From Takakia lepidozioides (taxonomy: Eukaryota > Plantae > Bryophyta), in the NCBI GenBank assembly GCA_030704615.1, contig CM060732.1:64976001-65040000 (forward strand): a stretch of DNA of 64,000 nt, given 5' to 3'. Under the pieces are notes generated by a model. That model did no database searches and was not told the origin of the DNA. It saw only the letters and a list, made by a program, of their open reading frames with translations. Position 1 is the first letter of the stretch. The number at the start of each line of letters is the position of its first letter. Below, piece by piece: positions 1,055 through 29,645 of the stretch. A program made the translations under genes and the position numbers.

Positions 1055-1056
1055 GC

Positions 1057-1141: not shown

Positions 1142-1143
1142 AT

Positions 1144-1152
1144 CGCCCCCCT
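1144..1152 (-). other. Polypurine tract (AGGGGGGCG) of copy 1
   Basis: G-run followed by AT and then the TG start of B1, the canonical PPT position. Confidence 0.75.
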
Positions 1153-1401
1153 AGCTGGTGGATAGGTCCCTCTACCTCCAGATAGCTACAAGACGTAATA
1201 GCCATAGCCGTACTAAGTCCTCTATCACTGTCCCTATCGTACTCAAACTCTATAGACCAAGAGGCCGGGTACAAGAGTAGCCCCATCGTTAGTCGCCGTC
1301 TTGCAATCTGTGAACTTGAGCCAGGACCTCGTGTGTTCAAGGTCTCCTAGTAGCTGGGCCTTGCGTTTCTTGTTAGCCTTCCATGGTTGTATCCACTCCC
1401 A

Positions 1402-2982
1402 CTATCCAATGCAATGTGGACATAACCAATCCCCATCCGGAACCATCTCAAGAGGTGGAGTCAAGCATCCCATATGCCAACCTCTAGAGCATCGATCACA
1501 CACCAGCATGGTGGCTGCCCCTCTAGCAGACCCACACAACATGCACCTCAAACCTGCAGATACCACTGCCCAGTTTGGGTCTATCCTGCAATCGACATTC
1601 GGAAGGTGACATGGCGTACAATTACGCACATGGTCCTTCCAAGTTATGCCATCCCAACCCTCCAAGACCAAGACTCCTGAGGGCAAGACCTCTCGAACCC
1701 TCAGAATAACACGTCTTGCAGTCACATCCAAGGTCGTAGGAGCAGTTTGCTGCAGATAGACATAGTCACCAGGGTTGAATCTCCGAACCCCAGGACGATA
1801 GCCCCCACCACGTATGGTAGCATACCTCAACGTATCACGGTGTTGTGCAATGGCAAGGTTCTCGAAAGCCATGGGCATGACTCTCTTGAACAACTCTGCA
1901 CGCTGCTCACATGCACGTGCCCACACGTCCGGATCGTCAAGGTTAAGAACTGTAGCAGCTTCTCTGCGAATGGATGTAGGCAAATCCGGCTCTGGGCCAA
2001 AGAGAAGAAAGTATGGTGAGAAGGAGGCAAGTGACGCTTGCTTGCTGAACCTGTAGCCCATGGCTAACCAGGGTAACTGAAGGTCCCAATCTCCTAGGTG
2101 TCCCTTCTGCAAGCCATACTTGCGCAAACCCCTCTTTACTGTCTGAACAACTCTCTCTACCAAGCCATCGGCCTCGGGATGATCCCGAGAAGTGGTGCGG
2201 TGGTCTATCAAGGCTTTGTCACACAAAGCCTGAAACTCCCCCAAGAACTCTCTCCCTTGGTCCGTGAGTACCTCAGCTGGAGCACCGAATCGGCTAAGCA
2301 CACAATCCAAGAATGCATACGCAGCTCCCTCACTAGCCTTATGAGGCAATGGAACCAATTCAATCCACTTGGAGAAGTGCTCCACCATCACCAACACGTA
2401 CTTGTTGTGGCGCATGGTCAGTGGCAATGGCCCTGCGAAGTCAAGACTCCACCTATAGCCCAATCCCATGATCGGAAGAGGGTGCAATTGTGGAGTAGGG
2501 GCGTTGAATGAAGCACGCACCCTGTCACACACCATGCACCTAGCCACAAATTGTTGCACCTCTGTGTGCATACCACGCCACCAATACTGCCCCTGCAGTA
2601 GACTATGAGTGCGTCGCACCCCAAAATGCCCCAACTCCTCATGGGCATGGCGCACTAACCGTGCCCGCTGTGTTGGGTGAGGCACAATCCTCACTCGACC
2701 ATCCTCCCACACTCGGAGCAGGTGTGTCCCCTCCCACTTGAACCTCTTGGCTCGTTGTAGGATCCGATCCCTCTCCTTGGCAGTCACAGTGGCTGCCGTG
2801 TCTCCAGTGCGGAGGTAGTCCAACACAACTGAATCCTCATGTATATCTTTGGCGCCACCTTGCTCATTGCTGGCCTCAGGGTCCTCAGACACTTGATCTA
2901 CAGTCATCCCTGTTGCAGGTCCAACTTGGCCTTCTGCTGCCAAGATACACAGAAATGCAGATACATGCCATCCGGGCACCAT
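1402..2982 (-). CDS. Integrase with C-terminal PHD finger (pol 3' part, copy 1)
   Basis: HHCC (HEELGH...CMVC), DDE (SLDFAGP, LTDQGREF, GLVER), and C4HC3 PHD CMLC...CDRC...HMGC...WLCPHC. Confidence 0.93.
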   Translation of the reverse strand: MVPGWHVSAFLCILAAEGQVGPATGMTVDQVSEDPEASNEQGGAKDIHEDSVVLDYLRTGDTAATVTAKERDRILQRAKRFKWEGTHLLRVWEDGRVRIVPHPTQRARLVRHAHEELGHFGVRRTHSLLQGQYWWRGMHTEVQQFVARCMVCDRVRASFNAPTPQLHPLPIMGLGYRWSLDFAGPLPLTMRHNKYVLVMVEHFSKWIELVPLPHKASEGAAYAFLDCVLSRFGAPAEVLTDQGREFLGEFQALCDKALIDHRTTSRDHPEADGLVERVVQTVKRGLRKYGLQKGHLGDWDLQLPWLAMGYRFSKQASLASFSPYFLLFGPEPDLPTSIRREAATVLNLDDPDVWARACEQRAELFKRVMPMAFENLAIAQHRDTLRYATIRGGGYRPGVRRFNPGDYVYLQQTAPTTLDVTARRVILRVREVLPSGVLVLEGWDGITWKDHVRNCTPCHLPNVDCRIDPNWAVVSAGLRCMLCGSARGAATMLVCDRCSRGWHMGCLTPPLEMVPDGDWLCPHCIG

Positions 2983-3027
2983 CTGCTCGTCCGTCTCACC
3001 ATGCCACCGAGCTCCAGTGTCATCCTG

Positions 3028-4367
3028 CTAGCTCGTGCATGGATTGCGACTCAACCCATCTGCATTGCGATTGACCAAACCCGGTCGATGCACCACCTGA
3101 AAGTCATACTCTTGAAGGATGAGTGCCCACCGTGCAAGCTTCCCCGTAAGCTTGTCTGACTCCATCAACCATTTGAGTGGTTGGTGATCCGTGACAAGGG
3201 TGAAGAGATTGTCGTATAGATAGCACCTGAAGTGTGCCACGGCCCACACTGCAGCTAAGCATTCTCCCTTATATGAGCTATACTTAGACTCTGCAGCATT
3301 GTTCGAGCGGCTAGAATAAGCCACTACGAACTCTCTTCCCTCATCATCCACCTGTGTGAGCACCGCTCCAAGCCCCTGCATGCTCCAATCTGTATGCAAC
3401 TGAAAAGGACGCCCCCTGATAGGTCGTCTCAAGATGGACGCCGAGGTCAACCTCGCCTTGAGCTCTTGAAAAGCTTGTTCTTGCTCATCTTCCCACTGCC
3501 ACTCCTGGTCCACCTTGGTCAGCTTGGTTAGAGCCTTTGCAATGGCACTGAATCCATTAACAAACCATATGTAATAGTTTGCTAACCCCATGAAAGCTCG
3601 AACTCGGCTCACATCCGTGGGGCGTGGAACCTGTGCAATGGACTCTACCTTAGTCTGCTGTATCCCCAATCCTCCAGGATATATCATGTGACCCAGACAC
3701 TGTGGAAAAACTTGCACTTGCCCTGATGTAACTTCAATCCGTGCGTCCTTAAGCGCTCAAATACCCCCTGAAGGTGTCTCTCATGCTCCTCCACCGTAGC
3801 AGTAAAGATGATGATGTCATCTATGTAGCACCGAGCAAACTCCACCCCTGCTAGAATCCTGTCCATGACTCTTTGAAACTCAGCGGGAGCGTTTTTAAGC
3901 CCAAATGGTAAGAACCGCCACTGGTATAGGCAATCCTTCCCGTGCTCATTGATCCCCTAGAATGCCGTCTTTTGCTTATCCGCCTCCTTGATCGGCAACT
4001 GGTGATATCCGGATAGTAAATCCAACGTGCTAAAGACCTTGGAATGCCCAATGGCATCAAAGATCTCCTCTGGTGTTGGCATGGCATACCTATCGGACTT
4101 GGTCTGACAATTTACAGGCCGGTAATCACCGCACATACGTCTCTCCGTCCAATTGCCATAGACATCCTTCTTAGCTGGCATCACTGTGGCTGAAGCATAC
4201 TCTCCACCAGAGAACTCCACCAAACCTGCCTCCCAGAGATCTTGAGTCCTCAACTGAATCAAAGACCTCTCCATGTCACTGTATCTATAGGGTCTTCGAA
4301 AGATTGGCGTATCAGTGGCCAACTCAATACGGATCTCTTGACCCTTCAGTGCTCCCAAGTCCTTCAA
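3028..4367 (-). pseudogene. Reverse transcriptase and RNase H (copy 1, disrupted)
   Basis: RMCGDYRPVN, FSTLDLLSGYHQ, LPFGLKNAP, CYIDDIII, LHTDWS, TDHQPL, NADGLSR; one premature stop and a frameshift. Confidence 0.93.
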
Positions 4368-4819
4368 ACTGAAGGCAAAGCAATTCCTGTAAGCCCTCAG
4401 GAACCGCCGTATACGTCGTCTCTCTCCTCCGGTGACAATGGGTCCAATGTCAGGCTCCCAATTGTCCTCCGTAACTGCAACCTTAAGTCCAGTGGGCTTA
4501 GAGGTAGAGGACGCGTCCCGTGGTTGCTATGCTGCAACCTCTTGAGCAACACCCCCTTCCTGCTCAGTCAATGACAAGGCCTCATTCTGCCCCATCATCT
4601 CATCATTGAGAACCTCCTCAACCCGAGAAGAATCCCCAACCTCATCCATCACAGCTGCCTTGGCTGCCAACTCCCTCTGAACCTCGAGCACCTCCCACGT
4701 GTGCCATGGATGTCTACACCCCGTGGTCCTCACCGGCTCGCCCCCACTCGCTGCCTGTACCGTCTCGGTAGGCAGAGAGACCATGAAGGGGAGTGCACTC
4801 CGCACTCTACGTTGCTCAG

Positions 4820-5790
4820 CCATAGCCAAGCTGATAATCCAGGTCAAGCAATTGAGATCCATTGCTTGCCCCAACACCTGACGACGTGATGCCTAAGAAA
4901 GAGAAGGCACCGCCGTGGTCCCAGTGGAAAACCCCATAGCCCGCTCTTGCTCGTCGGCATTAGGCTCCACTAACTGCTGCAACTGAGCATCCACAGGAGG
5001 CCAGGTCCACCATCCCGAAAAGCATGGGATCCTGGGAAGCTGAGCAGTGTAGGTAATGCTGCTCGTGGTTGACCCACCCTGTTGACCACTGCCAAAGGCG
5101 AACGGTCATCGTGTCTCACATGTTGAGACTGCCTCCCTGTGTCCAAAATGCCATCCACGGTGAGGTGTGCTGGCCGCTGCACCCCATCAAATGCACGCTT
5201 GAGCAGTGCGGGTGGCATCAAATTAGTCCACCATAGTCGTGGACGATGAGCCCGTGATCCCACTCCAGCTGCATCCAGCAGCACTGCTGACCCAAGCCAC
5301 GACCGGACTTGATGCACACTGGCCATCACCCTGGCCCAAGAATCGCCCATCAGTGGCACATTCTCCAAGATGTATGCTGGCGATACAGCTTGATGAAGCT
5401 GCAAGTGGCGCAAAATCCGCACCATCTCCCAAAACAGACCCGTCCTCGAGTCTCGCAATCCATTGCCATGCCCGGCTGATGAATGCCCTTGGCAGGGCCA
5501 ACCTGCAACTACCAGATCAATGGAGCCAACGTGCTCCAAATCCGGCGCCCCCAGCAACGAAATGTCTGCTGGCAAGGCTTGTTGGAATCCACAAACTGCA
5601 GACACTCGCAACAAAGCAGGGTACTGCTGTACCAACTGAGCAACATGGCGCAGTGAGACGCGTCGTGCAGTCTCATCCCTCTCCACATACAGGTAACGCC
5701 TTACCGCACACATGCCTGTAGCACAGCAGCCAATCCGGTGCTGATCCCGCCAAACAAGTCCAAAAGGCAAATGCCTTCATCCGGATACTG
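4820..5790 (-). pseudogene. C5 cytosine DNA methyltransferase domain (DNMT3/DRM-like, unpermuted motif order) inside the retroelement polyprotein
   Basis: Motif I LLDLFGGISTG, II YLYVERD, IV IDLVVAGWPCQG, VI YILENV, VIII AHRPRLWWTNL, IX EQERAMGF, X RRQVLGQAMD; two frameshifts and one stop. Confidence 0.92.
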
Positions 5791-5903
5791 CCACACAATA
5801 GGTGGGTATCCAATGGTGACAATTGAGGTGGTCCTGGTGCAATACCCGCACTCTCCTCCTCTCATGACGGTACAAAAGCCTCTACCCAGGTTTGTTGCAC
5901 CCG

Positions 5904-8515
5904 TCAATCAGCAACCTGCTGCAAATCCTTGCTCGTACCCCACAATGGAGTGTGAGCAACCATGGCAGGCAACTCCGCCATACCATGTATGTCATTCTGC
6001 TCTGCTGGAGGTGGCACATCCTCTGCATGGGCATTACCTTCCAGCAACTCTCCAGGCCAACTAACTGCAGCTGTAAAGGCGGCTAGTGTTGGCATCTTGC
6101 CCGCTGGGCAGCCGCTATACCCCCAATGAATGTCACAGGGAGCTGTGCACGGCGACCATCGCCTGACTGCCATCCAGGCCTATAGGATGCTGACTCCTCC
6201 CAAAAGTCTAGGGTGAAGCCCATGGGGTATAACACTGCCCCACCAACGAGGACATCGTAAGAGACCGTGTCTGTCACAATGGCCGAGCCTCGCATTACTG
6301 AGCCATCGATAGGATGATCCGGCTGCAGTCTAATGGCCAACTGATGCCGTGTCATGCCCTGAGCCTACTCTGATCCTCCCAGAGATGTATATATCTGGAA
6401 AGGACAAGGCTCCATATCCGCCTCCATGAGGCCCAAACCTGCAATAGCAGCTCTGCCCAACATCAGTGGCTGAGCTCCCGAGTCCAACAAGACCCGCAGT
6501 GGCCGGTACTTCTTGCCTGCCGGTCCACTCAAAGTGAAAATGCCTCCCTGGTTGTCTAACAAGACAACTCCAGGTGTCACCATGGCGCGCTCAAAGGCTA
6601 GCCTAGCTGGCAGCTCCGTCAACCTGGCAGCTGCAGCTTGCCAGGGCGCAGCCGTGGCAGTCTTGACCCTCAAATCCGAGGATCCCTCTGCCACTACACC
6701 TTCCACTAACTCCGCAGAAGATGAAGTGACCTCCCCACTCTCACAGAGTGTTGCTGCTAGTCTGAACACTGCAGCAGGCCTCACCCCCGGCGTCGCAATC
6801 ATGGTTGCCGAGAACAATGGGGCTTGACACACAGAGGTGGCTGCCCCTAATAACACACCGGCTGCACTAGCCTTGGTAGCGGGTACAGTGCTGCACGTGT
6901 AGCTCTCCCCAATGGCATAGTAACCTCCGCCGGTAACAGTCGGGCGAGAACTAGGTGCCATGGATGGCGTCGACACAGTCTCCGCCAATGTGAATGACTG
7001 AGGAAGCCTCGCCTGACGGCTTGCCTCCCCACGCTGTGGATCCAATTCCACCTCTGCACCTCGTGGCTCAGGAACTCGTGCTGCTCCTGGAGTCACGGCT
7101 GCAGCAGACTCCACCTGCTCTAGTGGTAGTGCTGCTCCGCACATGAATCCCATGCCTCCCATATCTCCTCCCTCAGGAGCAGGAGGTGGAACCATCCCGC
7201 CTGGGAGCCGGTACCGCTGAGCTATAGCCATGGCAGCGAGCCTCTGCTCTAGGTGCTGAAGCCGATTGGCCATGCCTTGGTCAACACCCTGACCTCCGCG
7301 TCCTTGGCCATGTGGAGCTTGCCCTTGGCCTGCACCTCGTGCCCGACCACCTCGTCCTCTTTGGGGGTCCACCTCGCCCCGGCCACCATTGTTCCCTTGG
7401 AACTGGCCTGGGCGCAACTCAGGATGCAAGTCATAACACTGGGCATCTCCATGCCCATACTTGCCACAATGCCCACACTGCAACTGTGCAGGTTGCGCTT
7501 GTGCCGGCCTTCTGCCCCGTGCAGGCATGTCCTTGCCAAATCCAATTGTAACAACTCGCTCCTCCACCATGTTGAGCTCAATCCGCTCAGCCAGCAGAAA
7601 CACATCTGCTAATGTGGGTTGGGCTGCTTGTAACAGGGTTGCATCTCGCACCCTTCTCTTGAGCTCCTTGTCCAGAATTCCATACCAAAACTCGATTGCT
7701 GAGCTTCAGTAACCCCTTGGGTCACACTTATCAAGCGCCTCATACGAGTGTACGCCTCTCGCAGGCTCTCACTGGGTTTGCGCTGGAAGTCTTGCAAACT
7801 TCGCAGCTTCTCTGTTCGTACACCTTGGTAGTTCCTCCGCAACTCCTGGAAGAACTCCACCACCGGGTTGAATCTAGGCACATGTGTTGTAGTCGTGGCA
7901 GGAGGAGTAGTAGCACCTTTTGAACTGGTAGCACCTACAGAAGTACCAGCACTACTTGTTCCACTACTAGTGCTGGCAGTGGGAGATATGCGTACTGATG
8001 CAGCTACTGGTCGCGTCGTGCCTCGAGTAATGGAGACGTAGTCAGGTGACCAATACATCATCCACTCCTCAATCTCTGCTTCATGTCCTCGCCTGAACTC
8101 GTGGTAATCGTCCATAGGCGGGCCTTCCAAATGCTGGAACAGTCCCTTCCACGCCATGAATGGGGTGAATAGCTGTGGATTGCGCATCTGCTGCAAATCA
8201 CACCAGCTGTCAAACTCCTGGATAAAGTAATCAACTCGATTGTGCCCACAGCTCCAGAGTACCTACGAGGCCCCTTGGTAGCTCCATACATCTCCTCCAT
8301 GTCGTCCCACAACAATGGCGAATGAAACTGCACACCTATTGATGAAGCCTCTGAGTTGTGTCTGACTCTGCACTAGCTGAGGGTGGAGGTGGAGGTGGTC
8401 TGAAACGAACACCTCGTCTGGTGAACCCACTCTCACTGCTACTGCCTGTAGCCGTGTTCCCCTCAGAACCCTGGGTAACTCCGTGTGACACTCACAATGT
8501 GCACCTCCTCCACGT
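5904..8515 (-). pseudogene. Gag with zinc knuckle plus aspartic protease (copy 1, frameshifted)
   Basis: Gag-like QRKPSESLREAYTRM, knuckle CGHCGKYGHGDAQC, RG-rich tract, protease VLLDSGAQ...DVLVG. Confidence 0.88.
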
Positions 8516-9032
8516 GACACTATAAGGCTCTAGTACTAATAATAGTGACACGGGTGGGCACCTGTTGCAGTTTAAGGGTCATATCCCAATGGCTCAGGGC
8601 ACCTGCACCTGCATCCACCGCAAGAACTCCTATGGTTGGCTGGTCATCAACCCAGCCTCACCATAGAAGAAGAAACACTGGTGGTCTTGCTGGTCATCAC
8701 TCTAGCCTCACCACCGACAGCATACTCTAGGATTGACCGGTGATCAAATCCGGCCTAATCCCTATGAAAGCAAGCGCCCACACAAAACCAACATGGCGCA
8801 CAGTCAAGCATGCAGATGTTGGGGGAATCCAAACACAAGAAATCAAAACATCAACACCCCCACACCAAAATCCAGCTGCAATGCTGATCCTGCAGAATAG
8901 CCCAGCCTAAAACCCCGGACTGACTGGCCTCCACCAAGAGAGGCTTTGGCAACTACAAGTACAAGGTAATGAAAATAGTACAGAGATGGAGGGGAAGAAT
9001 AGAAGCCCGACCAAGCAAGATCTAATCCTGAT

Positions 9033-9778
9033 CTATGCTATCAACTGCCAGACTTCTCTCAAAGTGCCTCGCTCTGCATGATGGTAAGGTGTAGGAGGTA
9101 TATCTATGTCCAGAAACCTGCCACTAACCTTGTCCCAAGCTACAGTAGCTCGCTCTAACCAACCCTCCTCCTCTTTCTGCTAGGTAGAGACAAAGCAATA
9201 CTCCCTATCTCCCGCTCACTGAATACTAAAGAAAACAAAGGTAGGGTCTGATAGTCTCTCAACTCGAAAGCTTTGAGACGGTGCGGGTGTCCTCATTGCG
9301 AATGACTGCATCTCCTTCACGCACAACAAACATGTCATGCTGATGAACCCCCGCTCGTGGTTGCCCTGTGCAGAGCGTATCCGGCTGCAACCATGTCTGA
9401 TTGCACAAACTTGTGTAGCTCCTGCTCCTCAGCTCCAGTACACCACGGCCTTGTGGCTGAACACCTTGGTCCCCGGGGCTGTCTTTGGCTGTGTTCCAAG
9501 CCTAGCTTTCACCCACTTTGGTATTTCAGCTACAGCTGCAGAACTGCTGGCTCCAACAGAGTTCTGACTGTCCAAGGCGATATTGAGGCCCTCAACGCCA
9601 ACTACAGCAGTTTGTTGTCCACTACTAATGCCTGACTCCCAGTATGCAATCAACTCGTCCAACTGTTCTCCACTCAAATCAGTCTGAGTTCCTTGGGAAA
9701 CATAAATCTTGTCCCCTTGGTGCACAGGCTAAGAGAAGAGACCTGCCCTTCAATCACGTCCTCATTTCCCCCAGCCAT
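9033..9778 (-). pseudogene. Extra ORF upstream of gag (unknown function), copy 1
   Basis: Near-identical to 20954-21703; no recognised motif. Confidence 0.5.
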
Positions 9779-11199
9779 ACAAGGAGTACATCCCCAGATT
9801 TATCTCTCATGTAGACCAGAACAGGTTCTAGAAACAGGATTGTGGATCTTTCATGGCACATTCACACTCTAAAAATTCCATAGATTTTTAGCAGAGTCCC
9901 AAAAACAAAAAAAAAACCAGGTCTAGATAGGTAGATATCCCCTTTCTGCAGCTATCCCCTCAAAAACTGAGTCAAACGGAGCTCATTTGACAAAGATATG
10001 ACCAACCAGGCTCTATAAACATAACACTTTTTTTCTTTTTAAAAAATAAAATAAAAAATAAGACAAAACAAATACAAAGAAAGAAAACTCTATTGTCTTG
10101 GTTCCCTGTTCCCTGGTTCCCTGTTCCTGTATATGTGCCCAAAGTTCTAAATTGGTACCAGTGGATCTTAGGTATTGTTCATATTCGCCTGGCAGCCGTT
10201 GTCTCTGTGGCGAACGCAGCCCGCCAGTCTCCCGCAATCCTGTCAGCTCAACTTGAGCAACACAGATCGTTCTCGTGCAGGCACCATGATAGCTCCAAAA
10301 CTATGGGCGGCCCAGGAAGACGACGTCTCCTCACTTAATGAGAACGTTGAGTGCAAAAGGGACAATGGTATAACGGACAGCTGAAAGCGGCTCACAGTAA
10401 GGCCGGGGAGGCTATCTTTTGGCAAAGAAATTCAACGTTCATGCACAAACTAGTACCAACCCTGGACGAGTTCCCTGGACGCGTCTAGACTCCCCACCAA
10501 GCATGCTTGCCTTGCTGGAAAGGGCTGACCCGACCCATTCACTTCTTCAAGCACAGAAGAGAAGGAAAATCCTTGGTGACGAAGGACTTGGTGCTTGAGG
10601 TGCTGAAACTGCTTCGATGGGCCTCCCTCAACATTGGTTTGAGCCTCTTCCTTCTCAGATGCTGCCTGAGTCTGCAAATGCTGCACGCAGCATGCTCCTA
10701 ACTCCCACCTTCAATTCTTAGCTTGCATGTCTTACTTTGTCAGTCTCTTGCTTGTTGCCACTGCTGCTAGGCTGGTGATGCATATCTGCAGAGGACCAGC
10801 AGCTCCCTCCCATGTGTGGAGACCCCTTCTTGAGTCCATCCTCATCCATTGTACAGTTCTGATGTCTATCTAAGAGGTGGGAAGAGATATGGCTGGTGTT
10901 CAGGGATAAACAATGTTGCAATGAGGCAGCTGCAAGTTGCCAAATCAAAGACTTAGAAGGCCATCAGCTCCTTTGGTTGTGCCCTGTTTCTTTTACGCTC
11001 AAGCTCTCTCTGAATGGTCTCTTCCTGAGCTGACAGTGCCCAACCTGTCGACTTCTCCACATTTTCTTTCACATCTCTACCGTCAGGTTGCTCTACCGAG
11101 ACGTCGCCGCTCCCGGTTCTTCCTGTTCTTAACAACGTCCTCTGCCTCTTCAACCTTCAGCTTCTCTTCTTCTCTCATGAGAGGTTGCAATCCAGGGGT

Positions 11200-11530
11200 T
11201 CTCCCAATATTTTGCAACTTCCCATGTCATTTCCGCTGGGAACTGCACCATTCTCAGAGATCCATTTGTCTCGAATGCTTTCAAGTAGAGCTCGGTGGAC
11301 GGTTCTCATTCTGCACCTTCACATACCAGCATTGTAGCGGCTTGCGTGCAAAGTGTAGCCTCATACTCTGATAAGCCTGTCTTGAGACACCAACGTAATA
11401 TAGAATCTTTTCCTCATAAAAAATGGCATACACACTTGCCAGTCAGGTTTGCTGCAATCTGCAATCATACCCTCCTCAGTCAAGAATGCTACGAACTCGA
11501 GATCACTCAAAGATAAAGCGTTTCCACCTA
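11200..11530 (-). pseudogene. Captured fragment of a GIY-YIG domain gene (GRXS16 N-terminal/cyanobacterial-like)
   Basis: Reading across frameshifts gives LSDLEFVAFLTEEG…YYVGVSRQAYQSMRLHFARKPLQCWYVKVQ…LLESIRDKWISENGAVPSGN. Confidence 0.65.
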
Positions 11531-11936
11531 CTTGTGCCTGTCGCCTTTGCAGTGCATCTTGCTTCCGCCTATATTCTTCTTGTGCCTGGAATGTGAGCTG
11601 CCGTGTTTGTCTTGGTGTTCATTGGCTGCTGCCAGTTTTTACTTCCATGTTTCCATTATCCGAATTTGTTGTCTGCTTTCCCATCCAGATCCATGTACTC
11701 CGCAGCTTTCATCTTCTCCTTGATTTGCCTTGTGTACTCCAAAGCCTCTAGTGACTTGGTAGCTTCAGCGACTGCAACAACAGTGACGGCTCTGGCATCG
11801 TCATCCTCCAGGCGTTTCAGGGCACGCTGAATCTTGTGGTCACATTCAATGATATGTTTCTCAAACTAAGCACTACTTACACACAAGTAATCTGCAAGTG
11901 CACCCTCAAACTCCTACCTTGCACTCACAGGTAAGA

Positions 11937-11953
11937 GCTCATCTCTCTCGAGT
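11937..11953 (-). other. Self-priming primer-binding site of copy 1
   Basis: GCTCATCTCTCTCGAGT (11937-11953) is the exact reverse complement of 12143-12159 inside repeat A1; no TGG-starting tRNA PBS. Confidence 0.85.
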
Positions 11954-12309
11954 GATAAGAAAGCTTGAAAAGGACACACACTCTCAACACACGAAATGTG
12001 AAAATCCTCAACATCACTCGTTAAAACAGAAGTCGAGCCAGGGGCACCCCAAGCTGTGGGGACTCCACCCCACAACAACCTACACTCCCATCATGAGCAC
12101 ACTCAGTCCTAAACGATGCAAGAGCTCGGTCGCGCAGGCTCAACTCGAGAGAGATGAGCCGTGCGACTGCCGCTCTCGTGAAGATAAGACGGGTCAGGTG
12201 TCAAACTAAACTTGACACCTGATTTAACACTTGACCAAAATCCAAGTGTTAAATACAAATAACTAGCTTTATTCTAGCTAGTTTCACACTGTACTTATTT
12301 AACTTGACA
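11953..12309 (-). repeat. Repeat A1 (5' terminal) of copy 1
   Basis: TGTCAAGTT...TTATCA on the minus strand; copy of 700-1054. Confidence 0.95.
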
Positions 12310-18465: not shown

Positions 18466-18821
18466 TGTCAAGTTAAATAAGCACAGTGTGAAACTAGCTA
18501 GAATAAAGCTAGTTATTTGTATTTAACACTTGGATTTTGGTCAAGTGTTAAATCAGGTGTCAAGTTTAGTTTGACACCTGACCCATCTTATCTTCACGAG
18601 AGCGGGAGTCGCGCAGCTCATCTCTCTCGAGTTGAGCCTGCGCGACCGAGCTCCTGCATCATTTAGGACTGACTGTGCTCATGATGGGAGTGTAGGTTGT
18701 TGTGGGGTGGAGTCCCCACAGCTTGGGGTGCCCCTGGCTCGACTTCTGTTTTAAAGAGTGATAGTGATGGATTTCATATTTCTTGTGTTGGGAGTGTGTG
18801 TCCTTTCTAGCTTGTTTATCA
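18466..18821 (+). repeat. Repeat A1 of copy 2
   Basis: Copy of 29206-29559 (about 6 substitutions, mostly CG transitions, plus 1 indel); ends TTTATCA. Confidence 0.95.
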
Positions 18822-18835
18822 CTCGAGAGAGATGA
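18821..18835 (+). other. Self-priming PBS of copy 2
   Basis: ACTCGAGAGAGATGA is the exact reverse complement of 18618-18632 in A1. Confidence 0.85.
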
Positions 18836-19019
18836 AACTGTATCTAGTTTTCTAGTGCTAAGCTAGATGTGACGTTCTTGTTTTTAAGCACTATTATAAT
18901 ATAGCTTGGTTACGAGAGCCTGCAGTTAGACTGGCTATGTGTGCCTAGTGGAGCATAACAGGAAGACGGGAAACACTTGAAGTGTCGCTGCAGCAGTTCA
19001 AAGCTAATAATATTCTCGT

Positions 19020-19245
19020 CTTCCTGGCAGGCACTGCAGCAGGCTGTCTGCCTTGTCCTGAAAGTGTGGGGGGCCTGTCCTCATCAACAGCTGCAGCATA
19101 GGAATGGCTTCTGCCGCTACCATGGCTTGTGCTTTTCCCACCTCGGCAGGACTGGAGGACCAGGCTTGACGTAGTAGGAACAAAGCCTCAAGTGCTGCTT
19201 CCTGTGCTCCTTCATTGCCAGCCTCTAGTGCACCCACCAGCTGCG
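19020..19245 (-). pseudogene. CSI1: Captured fragment of CELLULOSE SYNTHASE INTERACTIVE 1-like ARM protein
   Basis: [60 protein letters not shown] matches the CSI1 region just before its C2 domain. Confidence 0.8.
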
Positions 19246-19452
19246 CGGACCTGCTCTAGTTACGCACAAACCTGTTCGGCATCTTTGATTTTGGACATGC
19301 CTGTATATTGCTCATTGTGTGGCTTCAGATTGAGCCCACCGTGACTTGCAAGCACTCTCCCATGAATGAGCCTGTCCAAGCTTTTATGCACTTGGAGTTT
19401 CTCGCATGAATGTGTCAATGTGCAGCGGCGGTGAGAGAGGAAGGCACGAGCC

Positions 19453-19775
19453 ATGCCGGCAGGTCATGGATTGCGATCGCGCACCAGGGATCTGTTCTCG
19501 CGGCCATTCAGGCAGAAGGGGTACATTCACTTGACCACGTATCTGAGAAACTACAGGATTGGAGATTATGTGGACATCAAGGTGAATGGCGCTGTGCACA
19601 AGGGCATGCCCCACAAGTTCTACCATGGCCGCACTGGTATCGTCTGGAATGTCACCAAGCGGGCTGTTGGTGTAGTTGTTAACAAGCAGGTTGGTCCCAG
19701 GATCATTCGGAAGCGCATCCATGTGCGCGTCGAGCATGTCCAGCCGTCCTGCTGCCGTGAAGGAGTTTGTCCGCG
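19453..19775 (+). pseudogene. RPL21: Captured, 3'-truncated, intronless 60S ribosomal protein L21
   Basis: [19 protein letters not shown]…[12 protein letters not shown]…[13 protein letters not shown]. Confidence 0.93.
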
Positions 19776-20953
19776 CCACAACAGTGGCGCTTACTGCCGG
19801 TATTGTAGGTTTTTTTGTTCCTCCTAAGTAGGGCATGAAAACACCATGTTCTAAGGTTTCTCCTAGTGCATTGAAGCTACTTGGCAGGGTTGGCTTGTTC
19901 TGAGGAGGCTGGTTGCTGAGCCGCATTTTGTTGGTTTTCTGAGACCACTCCAAGCTCGCAGCTTATAGATATAAGCAGCACGCCTTTTGCTCCATGGGTA
20001 GATCTATGGTCGCCCGAAGTGTTTCAACATTCTATTGCCTATGGGATTGTAGGCAGAAATCCAAAAACCAAAAATAGAGACGAGGAGAAGCTCTGGATTC
20101 ATGATGCAACTGGCAGGTGGATGTCACTGCAGAGGTGAGAAAAATACTGATGGCCAGTGGAAGGGAGCAGGTCACTGCTGCGTTGAGGGTTGCAAAAGGG
20201 TGTGCACCTTCATTGTAGATAAACGAGGCGCTTTGGACCCTTTAACGAGGCTTGGAGTTGGACGTTTTGAAGCTGGTTCCATGTCCAGCGCATGCTGTTG
20301 GAGCACCTGGTAGCCCATCCACAATTGCAGTGGGGGCTGAGAGCTGGTGCCTTCGAGGATTCAGTGGTTCGGAGTACGAGCTGCCTTTGTTGCTATTGAT
20401 GGTGCTGGAGAATCGCTTGAGACAAGGGCCTGCGGGTACAAGCCCTGCTGGTGTGAGAGCTGCTGCAGGCATTAGAGTCGGGCAGTAGAGTCGGCTATTG
20501 GTGAGACGAGATAGAAGCACTTTGGGTCTTCAATCCTGAGTGCCTCAGTACTTGAGCGTTGTCGGCACCAGCTTGATTTTGCATAGACCTGGAGGGGAAC
20601 GGCCTTGGGAACCTGTAGAGAACCAAAGAACAGGGAACCAAGACAAGTATTGAAAAAGAAAAAGAAAAAGGAGTTTTTAAAAGGGAAAAGAAAAGAAAAA
20701 GGTGTTATGTTTAAAGAGCCTGGTTGGTCATATCTTTGTCAAATGAGCTCCGTTTGACTCAGTTTTTGAGGGGATAGCTGCAGAAAGGGGATATCTACCT
20801 ATCTAGACCTGGTTTTTTTTGTTTTGTTTTTGGGACTCTGCTAAAAATCTATGGAATTTTTAGAGTGTGAATGTGCCATGAAAGATCCACAATCCTGTTT
20901 CTAGAACCTGTTCTGGTCTACATGAGAGATAAATCTGGGGATGTACTCCTTGT

Positions 20954-21703
20954 ATGGCTGGGGGAAATGAGGACGTGATTGAAGGGCAGGTCTCTTCTCT
21001 TAGCCTGTGCACCAAAGGGGACAAGATTTATGTTTCCCAAGGAACTCAGACTGATTTGAGTGGAGAACAGTTGGACGAGTTGATTGCATACTGGGAGTCA
21101 GGCATTAGTAGTGGACAACAAACTGCTGTAGTTGGCGTTGAGGGCCTCAATATCGCCTTGGACAGTCAGAACTCTGTTGGAGCCAGCAGTTCTGCAGCTG
21201 TAGCTGAAATACCAAAGTGGGTGAAAGCTAGGCTTGGAACACAGCCAAAGACAGCCCCGGGGACCAAGGTGTTCAGCCACAAGGCCGTGGTGTACTGGAG
21301 CTGAGGAGCAGGAGCTACACAAGTTTGTGCAATCAGACATGGTTGCAGCCGGATACGCTCTGCACAGGGCAACCACGAGCGGGGGTTCATCAGCAATGAC
21401 ATGTTTGTTGTGCGTGAAGGAGATGCAGTCATTCGCAATGAGGACACCCGCAACCGTCTCAAAGCTTTCGAGTTGAGAGACTATCAGACCCTACCTTTGT
21501 TTTCTTTAGTATTCAGTGAGCGGGAGATATGGGAGTATTGCTTTGTCTCTACCTGGCAGAAAGAGGAGGAGGGTTGGTTAGAGCGAGCTACTGTAGCTTG
21601 GGACAAGGTTAGTGGCAGGTTTCTGGACATAGATATACCTCCTACACCTTACCATCATGCAGAGCGAGGCACTTTGAGAGAAGTCTGGCAGTTGATAGCA
21701 TAG
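20954..21703 (+). pseudogene. Extra ORF upstream of gag (unknown function), copy 2
   Basis: Three overlapping frames (MAGGNED…, …ELHKFVQSDM…, MFVVREGD…WQLIA); conserved in copy 1. Confidence 0.5.
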
Positions 21704-22224
21704 ATCAAGATTAGATCTTGTTTGGTCGGGCTTCTATTCTTCCCCTCCATCTCTGTACTATTTTCATTACCTTGTACTTGTAGTTGCCAAAGCCTCTCTT
21801 GGTGGAGGCCAGTCAGTTCGGGGTTTTGGGCTGGAATATTCTGCAGGATCAGCATTGCAGCTGGATTTTGGTGTGGGGGTGTTGATGTTTTGATTTCTTG
21901 TGTTTGGATCCCCCCCAACACTTGCATGCTTGACTGTGCGCCATGTTGGTTTTGTGTGGGCGCTTGCTTTCATAGGGATTAGGCCGGATTTGATCACCGG
22001 TCAATCCTAGAGTATGCTGTCGGTGGTGAGGCTGGAGTGATGACCAGCAAGACCACCCGTGTTTCTTCTATGGTGAGGCTGGGTTGATGACCAGCCAACC
22101 ATAGGAGTTCTTGCGGTGGATGCAGGTGCAGGTGCCCTGAGCCACTGGGAATATGACCCTTAAACTGCAACAGGTGCCTACCCGTGTCACTATTAGAATT
22201 AGTAATAGAGCCTTATAGTGTCAC

Positions 22225-25029
22225 GTGGGGGAGGTGCACATTGTGAGTGTCATCACGGAGTTACCCAGGGGTTCTGAGGGGAACACGGCTACAGGCAGTA
22301 GCAGTGAGAGTGGGTTCACCAGACGAGGTGTTTGTTTCAGACCACCTCCACCTCCACCCTCAGCTAGTGCAGAGTCAGACACAAACTCAGAGGCTTCATC
22401 AATAGGTGTGCAGTTTCATTCGCCATTGTTGTGGGACGACATGGAGGAGATGTATGGAGCTACCAAGGGGCCTCGTAGGTACTCTGGAGCTGTGGGCACA
22501 ATCGAGTTGGATTACTTTATCCAGGAGTTTGACAGCTGGTGTGATTTGCAGCAGATGCGCAATCCACAGCTATTCACCCCATTCATGGCGTGGAAGGGAC
22601 TGTTCCAGCATTTGGAAGGCCCGCCTATGGACGATTACCACGAGTTCAGGCGAGGACATGAAGCAGAGATTGAGGAGTGGAGGATGTATTGGTCACCTGA
22701 CTACGTCTCCATTACTCGAGGCACGACGCGACCAGTAGCTGCATCAGTACCAATATCTCCCACTGCCAGCACTAGTAGTGGAACAAGTAGTGCTGGTACT
22801 TTTGTAGGTGCTACTACTCCTCCTGCCACGACTACAACACATGTGCCTAGATTCAACCCGGTGGTGGAGTTCTTCCAGGAGTTGCGGAGGAACTACCAAG
22901 GTGTACGGACAGAGAAGCTACGAAGTTTGCAAGACTTCCAGCGCAAACCCAATGAGAGCCTGCGAGAGGCGTACACTCGTATGAGGCGCTTGATAAGTGT
23001 GACCCAAGGGGTTACTGAAGCTCAGGCAATCCAGTTCTGGTATGGCATTTTGGACAAGGAGCTCAGGAGAAGGGTGCGGGATGCAACCCTGTTACAAGCA
23101 GCCCAACCTACATTAGCAGATGTGTTTCTGCTGGCTGAGCGGATTGAGCTCAACATGGTGGAGGAGCGAGTTGTTACCATTGGATTTGGCAAGGACATGC
23201 CTGCACGAGGCGCAGCTGCCAGCCCATAGGCACAAAGGACTGCCCAACAACGTGGTCAGGGGGGCAAGGTTTCCCAACCCAAGTTCCATGGAGCTTACAG
23301 GGAACCTCAAGTGTAGAGGCCCATGGCATCTTTTGCAGGCCAAAAACAACCAGGGGTGATATGTTGGACATGTGGAGGACCCCATGTCAAGAGAGATTGC
23401 CTAGAGAGTGGCAGAAGGCCGGCACAAGCACAGCCTGCACAGTTGCAGTGTGGGCATTGTGGCAAGTATGGGCATGGAGATGCTCAGTGTTATGACTTGC
23501 ATCCTGAGTTGCGCCTAGGCCAGTTCCAAGGGAACAATGGTGGCCGGGGGCGAGGTGGACCAGCCCAGAGAGGACGAGGTGGTCGGGCACGAGGTGTAGG
23601 CCAAGGGCAAGCTCAACATGGCCAAGGACGCGGAGGTCAGGGTGTTGACCAAGGCATGGCCAACCGGCTTCAGCAGCTAGAGCAGAGGCTCGTTGCCATG
23701 GCTACAGTGCAGGCGGTACCGGCTCCTAGGCGGGATGGTCCACCTCCTGCTCCTGAGGGAGGAGATATGGGAGGCATGGGATTCATGTGCGGAGCAGCAC
23801 TACCACTAGAGCAGGTGGAGTCTGCTTCAACCGTGACTCGAGGAGCAGCACGAGTTCCTGAGCCACAAGGTGCAGAGGTGGAGTTGGATCCACAACGTGG
23901 GGAGGCAAGCCGTCAGGCGAGGCTGCCTCAGTCATTCACCTTGGCGGAGACAGTGTCAACGCCATCCATGGCACCTAGTTCTCGCCCGACTGTTACCGAG
24001 GCGGAGGTTTCTATGCCATTGGGGAGAGCTACACGTGCAGCACTGACACCTGCTGCCAAGGCTAGTGCAGCCGGTGTGTTGTTGGGGGCAGCCACCTCTG
24101 TGTGTCAAGCCCCACTGTTCTCGGCAACCATGATTGCGACGCCGGGGGTAAGACCAGCTGCAGTGTTCAGACTAGCAGCAACACTCTGTGAGAGTGGGGA
24201 GGTCACTTCATCTTCTGTGGAGTTACTGGAAGGTGTAGTGGTATAGGGATCCTCGGATTTGAGGGTCAAGACTGCCACGGCTGCGCCATGGCAAGCTGCA
24301 GCTGCGAGGTTGACGGAGCTGCCAGCTAGGCCAGCCTTTGAGCGCGCCATGGTGACACCTGGAGTTGTCTTGTTAGACAACCAGGATGACATTTTCTCTT
24401 TGAGAGGACCGGCAGGCAAGAAGTACCGGCCACTGCGGGTCTTGTTGGACTCGGGAGCTCAGCCACTGATGTTGGGCAGAGCTGCTATTGCAGGTTTGGG
24501 CCTCATGGAGGCGGATATGGAGCCTTGTCATTTCCAAATACAGACATCTCTGGGAGGATCAGAGCAGGCTCGGGGCATGACACGGCATCAGTTGGCCATC
24601 AGACTACAGCCGGATCATCCTATCGATGGCTCAGTAATGCGAGCCAAGGCCATTGTGACAGACACGGTCTCTTACGATGTCCTCGTTGGTGGGGCAGTGT
24701 TATACCCCATGGGCTTCACCCTGGACTTTTGGGAGGAGTCAGCATTCTACAGGCCTGGATGGCAGTCAGGGGATGGTCGTCGTGCACAGCTCCCTGTGAC
24801 ATTCATTGGGGCTATTGCGGCTGCCCAACAGGGCAAGATGCCAACACTAGCCACCTTTACAGCTGCAGTTAGTTGGCCTGGAGAGTTGCTGGAAGGCAAT
24901 GCCCATGCAGAGGATGTGCCACCTCCAGCAGAGCAGGATGACATGCATGGTATGGCGGAGTTTCCTGCCATGGTTGCTCACACTCCATTGTGGGGTACGA
25001 GCAAGGATTTGCAGCAGGTTGCTGATTGA
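22225..25029 (+). pseudogene. Gag (two zinc knuckles) plus aspartic protease, copy 2
   Basis: One frame with in-frame stops; CWTCGGPHVKRDC and CGHCGKYGHGDAQC; VLLDSGAQ. Confidence 0.9.
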
Positions 25030-25129
25030 CGGGTGCAACAAGCCTGGGTAGAGGCTTTTGTACCGTCAGGAGAGGAGGAGAGTGCGGGTATTGCACCAGG
25101 ACCACCTCAGTTGTCACCATTGGATACCA

Positions 25130-25460
25130 CACCTATGTGTGGCAGTATCCGGATGAAGGCATTTGCCTTTTGGACTTGTTTGGCGGGATCAGCACCGGAT
25201 TGGCTGCTGTGCTACAGGCAGGTGTGCGGGTAAGGCGTTACCTGTATGTGGAGAGAGATGAGACTGCACGACGCGTCTCACTACGCCATGTTGCTCAGTT
25301 GGTACAGCAGTACCCCGCTTTGTTACCAGTGTCTGCAGTTTGTGGATACCAACAAGCCTTGCCAGCAGACATTTCGTTGCTGGGGGCGCCGGATTTGGAG
25401 CAGGTTGGCTCCATTGATCTGGTAGTGGCAGGTTGGCCCTGCCAAGGGCATTCATCAGCC
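25130..25460 (+). pseudogene. N-terminal half (motifs I-IV) of the DNMT domain, copy 2
   Basis: LLDLFGGISTG…YLYVERD…IDLVVAGWPCQGHSSA, then joined to sequence downstream of motif X. Confidence 0.9.
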
Positions 25461-25725
25461 ACCTTTGATGGTCTCTCTGCCTACCGAGATGGTACAGGCA
25501 GCGAGTGGGGGCGAGCCGGTGAGGACCACGGGGTGTAGACATCCATGGCACACGTGGGAGGTGCTCGAGGTTCAGAGGGTGTTGGCAGCCAAGGCAGCTG
25601 TGATGGATGAGGTTGGGGATTCTTCTCGGGATGAGGAGGTTCTCAATGATGAGATGATCAGGCAGGATGAGGCTTTGTCATTGACTGAGCAGGAAGGGAG
25701 TACTGCTCAAGAGGTTGCAGCATAG

Positions 25726-28700
25726 CAACCACGGGATGCGCCCTCTACCTCTAAGCCCACTGGACTTAAGGTTGCAGTTACGGAGGACAATTGGGAGCCT
25801 CACATTGGACCCATTGTCACCGGAGGAGAGAGACGACGTATACGGCGGTTCCTGAGGGCTTACAGGAATTGTTTTGCCTTCAGTTTGAAGGACTTGGGAG
25901 CACTGAAGGGTCAAGAAATCCGTATTGAGTTGGCCACTGACACGCCAATCTTTCAGAGACCCTATAGATATAGCGACATGGAGAGGTCTTTGATTCAGAT
26001 GAGGACTCAAGATCTCTGGGAGGCAGGTTTGGTGGAGCTCTCTGGTGGAGAGTATGCTTCAGCCACAGTGATGCCAGCCAAGAAGGATGTCTATGGCAAT
26101 TGGACGGAGAGACGTATGTGCGGTGATTACCAGCCTGTAAATCATCAGACCAAGTCCGATAGGTATGCCATGCCGACACCAGAGGAGATCTTTGATACCA
26201 TTGTGCATTCCAAGGTCTTTAGCACGTTGGATTTACGATCCGGATATCACCAGTTGCCGATCAAGGAGGCGGATAAGCAAAAGACGGCATTCTGGGGGAT
26301 CAATGAGCACGGGAAGGATTGCCTATACCAGTGGCGGTTCTTACCATTTGGGCTTAAAAACGCTCCGGCTGAGTTTCAAAGAGTCATGGACAGGATTCTA
26401 GTAGGGGTGGAGTTTGCTCGGTGCTACATAGATGACATCATCATCTTTAGTGCTACGGTGGAGGAGCATGAGAGACACCTTCAGGGGGTATTTGAGCGCT
26501 TGAGGGCGCACGGATTGAAGTTACATCCGGGAAAGTGCAAGTTTTTCCACAACCAGATTGAGTATCTGGGCCACATGATATATCCTGGAGGATTGGGGGT
26601 ACAGCAGACTAAGGTAGAGTCCATTGCACAGGTTCCACGCCCCACGGATGTGAGCCGAGTTCGAGCTTTCATGGGGTTAGCAAACTATTACAGACGGTTT
26701 GTTAAGGGATTTAGTGCCATTGCAAAGGCTCTAACCAAGCTGACCAAGGTGGACCAGGAGTGGTAGTGGGAAGATGAGCAAGAACAAGCTTTTCAAGAGC
26801 TCAAGGCAAGGTTGACCTCGGCGCCCATCTTGAGACGACCTATCAGGGGGCGTCCTTTTCAGCTGCATGCAGATTGGAGCATGCTGGGGCTTGGAGCGAT
26901 GCTCACACAGGTGGATGATGAGGGAAGAGAGATCGTAGTGGCTTATGCTAGCCGCTCGAACAACGCTGCAGAGTCTAAGTATAGCTCATATGAGGGAGAA
27001 TGCTTAGCTACAGTGTGGGCCGTGGCACACTTCAGGTGCTATCTATACGACAATCTCTTCACCCTTGTCACGGATCACCAACCACTCGAATGGTTGATGG
27101 AGTCAGACAAGCTTACGGGGAAGCTTGCACGGTGGGCACTCATCCTTCAAGAGTATGACTTTCAGGTGGTGCATCGACCGGGTTTGGTCAATCGCAATGC
27201 AGATGGGTTGAGTCGCAATCCATGCACGAGCCAACAGGATGACACTGGAGCTCGATGGCATGGTGAGACGGACGAGGAGATGGTGCCCGGATGGCATGCA
27301 TCTGCATTTCTGTGTATCTTGGCAGCGGAAGGCCAGGTTGGACCTGCAACAGGGATGACTGTAGATCAAGTGTCTGAGGACCCTGAGGCCAGCAATGAGC
27401 AAGGTGGCGCCAAAGATATACATGAGGATTCAGTTGTGTTGGACTACCTCCGCACTGGAGACACGGCAGCCACTGTGACTGCCAAGGAGAGGGATCGGAT
27501 CCTACAACGAGCCAAGAGGTTCAAGTGGGAGGGGACACACCTGCTCCGAGTGTGGGAGGATGGTCGAGTGAGGATTGTGCCTCACCCAACACAGCGGGCA
27601 CGGTTAGTGCGCCATGCCCATGAGGAGTTGGGGCATTTTGGGGTGCGACGCACTCATAGTCTACTGCAGGGGCAGTATTGGTGGCGTGGTATGCACACAG
27701 AGGTGCAACAATTTGTGGCTAGGTGCATGGTGTGTGACAGGGTGCGTGCTTCATTCAACGCCCCTACTCCACAATTGCACCCTCTTCCGATCATGGGATT
27801 GGGCTATAGGTGAAGTCTTGACTTCGCAGGGCCGTTGCCACTGACCATGCGCCACAACAAGTACGTGTTGGTGATGGTGGAGCACTTCTCCAAGTGGATT
27901 GAATTGGTTCCATTGCCTGATAAGGCTAGTGAGGGAGCTGCGTATGCATTCTTGGATTGTGTGCTTAGCCGATTCGGTGCTCCAGCTGAGGTACTCACGG
28001 ACCAAGGGAGAGAGTTCTTGGGGGAGTTTCAGGCTTTGTGTGACAAGGCCTGGATAGACCACCGCACCACTTCTCGGGATCATCCCGAGGCCGATGGCTT
28101 GGCAGAGAGAGTTGTTCAGATAGTAAAGACGGGTTTGCGTAAGTATGGCTTGCAGAAGGGACACCTAGGAGATTGGGACCTTCAGTTACCCTGATTAGCC
28201 ATGGGCTACAGGTTCAGCAAGCAAGCATCACTTGCCTTCTTCTCACCATACTTTCTTCTCTTTGGCCCAGAGCCGGATTTGCCTACATCCATTTGCAGAG
28301 AAGTTGCTACAGTTCTTAACCTTGACGATCCGGACGTGTGGGCACGTGCATGTGAGCAGCGTGCAGAGTTGTTCAAGAAAGTCATGCCCATGGCTTTCGA
28401 GAACCTTGCCATTGCACAACACCGTGATACGTTGAGGTATGCGATCATACGTGGTGGGGGCTATCGTCCTGGGGTTCGGAGATTCAACCCTGGTGACTAT
28501 GTCTATCTACAGCAGACTGCTCCCTACAACTTTGGATGTGACTGCAGGACGTGTTATTTTGAGGGTTCGAGAGGTCTTGCCCTCAGGCGTCTTGGTCTTG
28601 GAGGGTCAGGATGGCACAACTTGGAAGGATCATGTGCGTAATTGTGCGCCATGTCACCTTCCGAATGTCGATGGCAGGATTGACCCAAACCTGGCAGTGG

Positions 28701-28861
28701 TATCTGCAGGTTTGAGGTGCATGTTGTGTGGGTCTGCTAGAGGGGCAGCCACCATGCTGGTGTGTGATCGATGCTCTAGAGGTTGGCATATGGGATGCTT
28801 GACTCCACCTCTTGAGATGGTTCCGGATGGGGATTGGTTATGTCCACATTGCATTGGATAG
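25726..28861 (+). pseudogene. RT-RNase H-integrase-PHD, copy 2
   Basis: Same motifs as copy 1; premature stops at 26764, 27811 and 28192 and a frameshift near 28525. Confidence 0.93.
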
Positions 28862-29107
28862 TGGGAGTGGATACAACCATGGAAGGCTAAGAAATGCAAG
28901 GCCAAGCTACTAGGAGACCTTGAACACACGAGATCTTGGCTCAAGTTCACAGATTGCAAGACGGCGACTAACGATGGGGCTACTCTTGTACCTGGCCTCT
29001 TGGTTGATAGAGTTTGAGCACGATAGAGATAGTGATAGAGGACTTAGTACGGCTGTGGCTATTACATCTTGTAGCTATCTGGAGTTAGAGGGACCTATCC
29101 ACCAGCT

Positions 29108-29116
29108 AGGGGGGCG
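29108..29116 (+). other. Polypurine tract of copy 2
   Basis: AGGGGGGCG-AT-TGTGG. Confidence 0.75.
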
Positions 29117-29118
29117 AT

Positions 29119-29645
29119 TGTGGCAGACTACTTTATTGTGCATATATGTGTGGTGTGGTTTGGACAGCGATGTAGTTGTGTAGCGATACGTATGCGCACG
29201 ACAGCTGTCAAGTTAAATAAGCACAGTGTGAAACTAGCTAGAATAAAGCTAGTTATTTGTATTTAACACTTGGATTTTGGTCAAGTGTTAAATCAGGTGT
29301 CAAGTTTAGTTTGACACCTGACCCGTCTTATCTTCACGAGAGCGGGAGTTGCGCAGCTCATCTCTCTCGAGTCGAGCCTGCGCGACCGAGCTCCTGCATC
29401 GTTTAGGACTGAGTGTGCTCATGATGGGAGTGTAGGTTGTTGTGGGGTGGAGTCCCCACAGCTTGGGGTGCCCCTGGCTCGACTTCTGTTTTAAAGAGTG
29501 ATAGCGATGGATTTCATATTTCTTGTGTTGGGAGTGTGTGTCCTTCTAGCTTGTTTATCTTGTGGCAGACTACTTTATTGTGCATATATGTGTGGTGTGG
29601 TTTGGACAGCGATGTAGTTGTGTAGCGATACGTATGCGCACGACA
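29119..29645 (+). repeat. B1 (29119-29203) - GC - A2 (29206-29559) - T - B2 (29561-29645)
   Basis: Direct sequence comparison; B1 and B2 appear identical. Confidence 0.95.

Follow-up and report, generated by a model that had tools for sequence, protein, structure and literature searches.

A conserved in-frame TAG between DNA methyltransferase and reverse transcriptase as a candidate readthrough site in a Gypsy-type retrotransposon of Takakia lepidozioides

In-frame stop codons that end Gag or Pol have been described in several retroelements, including murine leukaemia virus (MuLV), SIRE1 and Tca2 (PMC2194720), and also in VdLTRE5. In the plant long terminal repeat (LTR) retrotransposon SIRE1, the stop between pol and env is suppressed and passed in frame (PMC2194720), and a UAG followed by CAR-YYA is the readthrough signal of the tobacco mosaic virus (TMV) type (PMC3159437; PMC2194720). 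Retrotransposons carrying a DNA methyltransferase (DNMT) are also known: de Mendoza et al. (2018) placed a DNMT in the Pol open reading frame (ORF) of KnitGypsy-Dnmt3 from Klebsormidium nitens and noted DIRS-like repeats, for which the text consulted gives no mechanism (PMC5890265). Here, a 64,000 nt stretch of Takakia lepidozioides DNA (assembly GCA_030704615.1, contig CM060732.1, positions 64,976,001 to 65,040,000; the window) that includes two copies of a Gypsy-type element was analysed. The domain order of this element is Gag, protease (PR), DNMT, reverse transcriptase (RT), RNase H (RH), integrase (IN) and PHD finger, and a single conserved TMV-type stop lies between DNMT and RT. The context of the SIRE1 stop is likewise CARYYA.

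The stop between DNMT and RT

Both copies include TGA-CGG between PR and DNMT (25027..25032, + strand, in copy 2; 5901..5906, - strand, in copy 1) and TAG-CAA-CCA between DNMT and RT (25723..25731, +, in copy 2; 4521..4529, -, in copy 1). Both stops, which begin at 25027 and 25723 in copy 2 and at 5906 and 4529 in copy 1, had been reported with these contexts in a first-pass annotation, and they are indeed the only in-register stops from gag to integrase that the copies have in common. The RT-to-PHD region of copy 2 also contains private stops at 26764, 27811 and 28192 and a frameshift at 28522, beyond which lies a TAA (28639) that is found in both copies. The further claim that other comparable stops are private cannot be extended to two of the three that interrupt the Gag/protease region of copy 2 (23227, 23314 and 24244), since the first two fall inside a 201 nt stretch missing from copy 1 and their privacy cannot be called. 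Similarly, the frame was said to continue directly past each of the shared stops. This is correct for the TAG, which is followed by 346 open codons in copy 2 and 189 in copy 1, but not for the TGA, as copy 2 exits the DNMT frame near 25135, 35 codons later. Copy 1, for its part, is interrupted by a private TGA (5864) 14 codons further on and by a frameshift near 5805.

Within the family, no variant reaching 1 % was found at any position from 25723 to 25731 in 530 contigs of the deepest run, X1, with a summed depth of about 1.08 million, while adjacent positions vary (25719, 9 %; 25720, 19 %; 25733, 6 %). This comparison used a 1 % threshold over the narrow range 25688-25765, and its variant table misses differences near the ends (known variants at 25699, 25737 and 25741 are absent), leaving a probable informative zone of approximately 25717-25736. 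The TAG is also carried by contigs of runs X8 and X9 (organism B), and the alignment for run X14 (organism C) covers 56 nt only and says nothing on single letters.

More distant relatives were examined in 80 metagenome loci, of which 40 have DNMT followed by RT, six have RT upstream of DNMT and 34 are uninformative. A TAG or TAA is present at the homologous place and in the RT frame in all 40. Sixteen viral loci with weak DNMT matches were excluded, and only one of the six loci from genome contigs (L097, from an additional scan) was used. A single family, called Sphagnum-type here because it matches the Sphagnum proteins P0017 and P0045, accounts for 35 of the 40 loci and has the context CAA-CCC. 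Outside it, the stop is followed by CAA-CCA (L032), CAG-TTA (L048 and L050), CAA-TTA (L071) or TAG-CCA (L047), and by CAA-TCA in L097. Hence, UAG followed by CAR-YYA is found in the window, L032, L048, L050, L071 and L097 but not in the Sphagnum-type family or L047. The possibility that TAA is a tolerated variant in the Sphagnum-type family, which would have told against a splice acceptor, was considered and rejected. TAA occurs in nine of 30 tree rows and is scattered over the tree (8 changes against a shuffled mean of 7.9), so it is likely to represent decay.

Two of the relatives are intact. L050 consists of 1369 open codons, TAG CAG TTA and 1047 further codons, and L097 of at least 1162 open codons, TAG CAA TCA and again 1047 codons, the downstream frame reaching the end of the PHD finger in both. 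The TAG is thus the sole stop in approximately 2,200-2,400 codons, and the PR/DNMT junction is open. The DNMTs of both retain motifs I, IV, VI and VIII. The RT frame is kept over six differing lengths of the DNMT-to-RT linker. A single in-frame stop between open frames is retained throughout the family as well as by intact and by diverged relatives, and conservation of the TAG and its context, which the first-pass annotation had proposed as the test, is well supported.

The context is not what would be expected by chance, because CAR-YYA is rare among the in-frame codon pairs of the two intact relatives (8/2416 and 8/2209). In the six lineages besides the window, CAR and YYA are each present in five, against backgrounds of 4.3 % and 5.9 %, respectively. 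The second codon after the stop encodes Pro, Leu or Ser (CCA, TTA or TCA) and the flanking linker residues have mostly diverged; retention of YYA while the amino acid changes points to selection on the nucleotides. The identification of UAG-CAR-YYA as a TMV-type signal in the first-pass annotation is documented (PMC3159437), and, judging from the sequence comparisons, we consider it likely that one readthrough event of this type makes Gag-PR-DNMT the main product and the full polyprotein a minor one. Ribosomes would pass the UAG a few percent of the time, yielding little full-length polyprotein; a rate of about 5 % is borrowed from the figure for MuLV (PMC2194720). A stem predicted 3' of the TAG (25739..25835, +, with approximately 25739-25752 pairing with 25822-25835) might assist. 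Most sequences of both subgroups yield such a prediction at the homologous place, a long-range stem beginning about 10-17 nt from the TAG, and 4 of its 21 pairs have changed on both sides. The DNMT would then enter the particle in Gag-like amounts, be released by the protease and methylate cDNA there, as may be supposed from the activity that has been reported for DNMTs of retrotransposons (PMC5890265).

Several observations weigh against readthrough at the TAG. The 35 Sphagnum-type loci have CCC in place of YYA and an ATG immediately after it, and the context in L047 is TAG-TAG-CCA. The additional features of tobamovirus sites are not enriched in the six lineages: A at -1 is found in two and G at +3 in five, the latter no better than a +5 control. 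The lineages share kinship, and binomial tails for the CAR and YYA counts therefore overstate significance. Contigs lose rare variants, and runs X1 and X3 are possibly from the window's own sample. The stem, a weakly supported prediction, has a z score of -0.97 in the window, its covariation does not exceed that of shuffles (289/500, four-sequence set), and folding is just as good elsewhere in these elements. Tca2 has a similar in-frame stop, yet showed no readthrough in reporters (PMC2194720). Finally, in five eukaryotic gene models the junction is skipped, at a different place in each, so that DNMT and RT are fused.

The last two points also bear on an alternative, in which the TAG does no more than close ORF1, and RT-RH-IN comes from an mRNA of its own, produced by splicing or internal initiation, or else from re-initiation. 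The five gene models, from Marchantia or Sphagnum, speak for it, Tca2 has an internal promoter at its own junction (PMC2194720), and in the Sphagnum-type family a U-rich run precedes the TAG and the ATG lies three codons beyond it. However, the five models use five differing joints, and splicing is disfavoured because the linker is GC-rich (49-55 % in the junction region), open in frame on either side and kept in frame over its six lengths. A contig of run X8, whose status as RNA is a guess, spans the stop ungapped. Any route that needs an ATG also has to contend with the position of the first in-frame Met, at codon 85, 48 or 117 in four lineages and so beyond the RT anchor at codon 17-24. With no in-frame ATG ahead of the RT core in these four lineages, re-initiation is unlikely to be a general route. 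Retention of CAR-YYA across three amino acids would also be left unexplained, and overall we regard production of RT-RH-IN from a separate mRNA or by re-initiation as unlikely.

Removal of the UAG by RNA editing was considered as well. U-to-C editing that removes stops occurs in hornwort and fern organelles. However, this is a nuclear element, its conserved 3' hexamer fits a translational signal, and the X8 contig reads TAG, making editing highly improbable as a substitute for readthrough.

The distribution of the stop was traced among 242 proteins and in an RT tree. The initial protein search was restricted to 469-2000 residues, which put full fusions out of range, and later searches included longer proteins. 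In thirty of the 242, Gag or PR precedes the DNMT and the protein stops 90-260 residues beyond it; a further 20 continue from DNMT into RT, and these are the five Marchantia or Sphagnum gene models and 15 distant proteins with RTs 31-47 % identical to that of the window. In the midpoint-rooted tree of 36 chosen rows, the nine stop-bearing rows and two Marchantia models lie on one side of a branch with support of 100/99, and the nine fused rows fall outside this clade. The simplest inferred reading is that the stop was gained once in this clade. L097, which lies in a contig labelled as part of a cyanobacterial genome assembly, is an intact plant-type retrotransposon and, as it groups with the stop-bearing elements, is likely to be a stray plant contig, a binning contaminant. 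Another 15 rows form a separate group in which a related DNMT lies between RNase H and integrase (L057, L060, L061, L066, L068, L069, P0039, P0040, P0043 and others), and DNMT therefore occupies two positions in Gypsy polyproteins.

The stop between PR and DNMT

The contigs of four runs were compared over 24940-25800 (X1 and X3 represent one sample). Of the depth units at 25027, C or G accounts for 466,626 out of 510,510 in X1, 107,145 of 110,925 in X3, 890 of 908 in X5 and all 29.3 in X8, corresponding to 91-100 % of contig depth. In X1, X3 and X5, C makes up 75-81 % and G 16-23 %. Since most of the depth is C or G, the family codon is CGA or GGA, and the TGA is a minority allele. None of 47 matches in related loci has a stop at the homologous codon (CGT in 27, CAT in 11, TGT in six, plus TAT, AAG and CAC), and the homologous residue is Arg in 14 of 22 aligned proteins, though these were preselected as open. 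Readthrough at TGA-CGG, as proposed in the first-pass annotation, therefore fails on conservation: the family and relatives have sense codons, and the intact elements are open through this junction.

Of 20 non-majority letters tested, copies 1 and 2 have 11 in common, some of them representing 0.6 % and 2 % or less of depth, which indicates that both came from one small sub-lineage that already had the TGA. The TGA is located at a CpG. It is likely that it arose by CpG deamination of an arginine codon in the sub-lineage parental to both copies, that this sub-lineage was mobilised in trans, and that TGA-CGG represents mutational decay. Deamination in a defective parent had been raised as a caveat for both stops, each of which is in a methylatable context that mutates 2-3 times faster between the copies. 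This stands for the TGA but not for the TAG, which occurs in every one of the 40 informative loci and as the only stop in two intact elements; deamination damage as the origin of both stops is scarcely credible.

The TGA was also compared with the type II (tobravirus/furovirus) signal, for which the fuller motif is xxA-stop-CGx-xxx-xxG, accompanied about 8 nt downstream by a stem (PMC3159437). The window reads GAT TGA CGG GTG CAA, with a hairpin that begins within the CGG, and thus departs from both motif and spacer, as well as lacking conservation in functional members. A three-step stoichiometry set by tandem readthrough at both stops had been suggested, and could be considered for at least the TGA sub-lineage. 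In its favour, TGA-CGG is present in both copies, up to about 9 % of X1 depth at 25027 is neither C nor G, and the folding of the 141 nt 3' of the TGA surpasses that of shuffles (z -2.98, 0/200). However, the model falls with readthrough at the TGA, given that the family majority is CGA or GGA, that no related locus has a stop there and that L050 and L097 are open at this junction. We consider three product levels to be very improbable, even in the sub-lineage, and a single readthrough step at the TAG remains the preferred explanation.

The two copies, their repeats and their surroundings

Copy 2 extends over 18466..29645 (+), and copy 1, which has the same layout, over 612..12309 (-). The copies are mutually inverted and 97.1 % identical over 8712 common aligned columns, with mismatches at 5.6 % of CG, 6.9 % of CHG and 2.4 % of CHH sites, and both have decayed through frameshifts and stops. 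Each has TG...CA ends and its own 4 bp target duplication (ACCA around copy 2, ATGT around copy 1), so they are separate insertions.

In copy 2, the Gag and protease-like region is at 22219..25026 (+), recognised by a Retrotrans_gag match below the Pfam cutoff (E 3.7e-4) and an LLDSGA motif with no protease match in Pfam. The DNMT remnant (25140..25460, +), which runs from motif I to the GWPCQ of motif IV, includes frameshifts near 25135 and 25228, and approximately 680 nt of DNMT are missing at 25460. The copy 1 DNMT (4975..5776, -) matches PF00145 (E 1.2e-12) and has a frameshift at either end. RT, RNase H, integrase (H2C2 and rve) and the C-terminal PHD finger occupy 25726..28861 (+) of copy 2, in the same frame as the TAG. 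The Pfam domains RVT_1, RT_RNaseH, Integrase_H2C2 and rve are in the Ty3/Gypsy order with a DDE integrase, Gag being below the cutoff and the protease known by motif alone. The nearest named proteins, up to 70 % identical, are from Marchantia, Calypogeia and Sphagnum.

TG...CA termini and a target duplication of 4-6 bp are as in Ty3/Gypsy elements. However, instead of two complete direct terminal LTRs the repeats are permuted (A...B-A-B), and the element is therefore filed as a Gypsy-type variant. In copy 2 the blocks are A at 18466-18820, B at 29118-29203, A at 29206-29559 and B at 29560-29645, giving repeat regions of 18466-18820 and 29118-29645; those of copy 1 are at 612-1143 and 11954-12309. 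The full layout in both copies is A...B-GC-A-B. Its inner joint forms the palindrome GACA-GC-TGTC, and a G-rich tract lies ahead of the first B. L044 shares this layout (1676-10805), and the palindrome is also found in L003, L044, L062 and L097 (at 7051 in the last). The bases following the first A can pair with a complementary stretch within A over 15 nt in copy 2 (18618-18632 and 18821-18835), 17 nt in copy 1 and 17 nt in L044, forming a primer-binding pair of the self-priming type, and the L044 pair is wholly different in sequence yet still complementary. The final A/B joint varies by 0-2 bases among copies, which fits a circle junction. These features suggest B-GC-A as the true LTR, and a two-LTR circle, opened at the internal palindrome, as the form that was inserted.

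Two other identities were rejected. A DIRS or Ngaro element with a tyrosine recombinase is contradicted by the rve integrase and the target duplications, though no scan aimed at a recombinase was made. Troyka elements are defined by CG...CG ends and a 3 bp target duplication (PMC12440569), whereas TG...CA ends and 4 bp duplications are seen here.

The 5' leaders of the two copies (18835-20690 in copy 2, 10040-11938 in copy 1; approximately 1.9 kb) are unrelated. That of copy 2 contains a fragment of ribosomal protein L21 (19435-19824, Pfam E 3e-45) and an antisense piece (19007-19255, no Pfam match) that we presume to resemble an ARM-repeat protein. This content suggests capture of pieces of host mRNA. 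Copy 2 interrupts the integrase of another, older Ty3/Gypsy element (about 15668-18465 and 29646-30315). Elsewhere in the window, an intronless PPR gene of 1056 codons (31463-34633, -) ends in DYW and is presumably of the DYW organellar editing-factor type, which points to a land plant as host. ORF fragments at approximately 45226-48482 have a CxCx-rich motif that we take to be SWIM-like, and may represent a decayed Mutator-type transposase.

Implications and comparison with known systems

If the stop after the DNMT is leaky, the enzyme would be made at the level of Gag rather than of Pol, a situation in which methylation of the element's own cDNA inside the particle is favoured. We tentatively propose, as a possible but doubtful scenario, that a land-plant Gypsy clade gained a TMV-type leaky stop and so may load active DNMT into particles at capsid stoichiometry, where it would methylate cDNA before integration, and that the integrating form may be a two-LTR circle opened at the internal palindrome, giving the DNMT an extrachromosomal substrate. 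This bears on the amount and place of DNMT action in retrotransposons such as those described previously (PMC5890265). The relatives also provide a naturally occurring range of contexts for readthrough (CAA-CCA, CAG-TTA, CAA-TCA, CAA-TTA and CAA-CCC) and a polarity, with distant relatives fused and the stop-bearing clade interrupted. For annotation, the stop accounts for those bryophyte gene models named 'DNA methyltransferase' that really represent ORF1 of these elements.

In the open literature, which leaves subscription papers and Repbase outside its scope, no paper on a stop between DNMT and RT or on this clade in bryophytes was found. Among self-priming Ty3/gypsy elements, Tcn1 and Tf1-sushi resemble the window element in their type of primer-binding site, but it differs from them in its DNMT, in its permuted repeats and in having a PHD finger where they have a chromodomain (PMC6317226). 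Neither 'PHD' nor 'methyltransferase' occurs in the main text of that survey of self-priming elements (PMC6317226).

The type I readthrough site of the tobamovirus replicase has the same stop and hexamer, and the window also has the tobamovirus A at -1 and G at +3 (PMC3159437). Here, however, the site is in a retrotransposon, A at -1 is not kept across lineages, and a 3' stem is predicted, unlike in tobamoviruses (PMC3159437). As in MuLV gag/pol and Tca2, an in-frame stop would set the ratio of structural protein to polymerase, but in those elements the stop ends Gag, whereas in the window element it comes after protease and DNMT, with a hexamer in place of a pseudoknot as the signal (PMC2194720). 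SIRE1 differs in being a Ty1/copia element whose stop lies after pol and ahead of an env-like gene, while the stop in the window gates RT-RH-IN (PMC2194720).

Among the closest described elements is KnitGypsy-Dnmt3, which, compared by description, shares the Gypsy domains, a Dnmt3-like DNMT within the polyprotein and DIRS-like repeats (PMC5890265), and the window element indeed combines a C5 DNMT in a Gypsy polyprotein with repeats of this kind. None of the hits used carried a Klebsormidium label. No stop or readthrough is mentioned for KnitGypsy-Dnmt3 in the text consulted or in three supplement files, and the window element differs from it in being found in a land plant and in having a conserved stop after the DNMT (PMC5890265). 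DNMT-bearing Gypsy elements with DIRS-like repeats and in-frame stops in retroelements were thus both known, and what the present comparison of sequences appears to add is a conserved stop between DNMT and RT.

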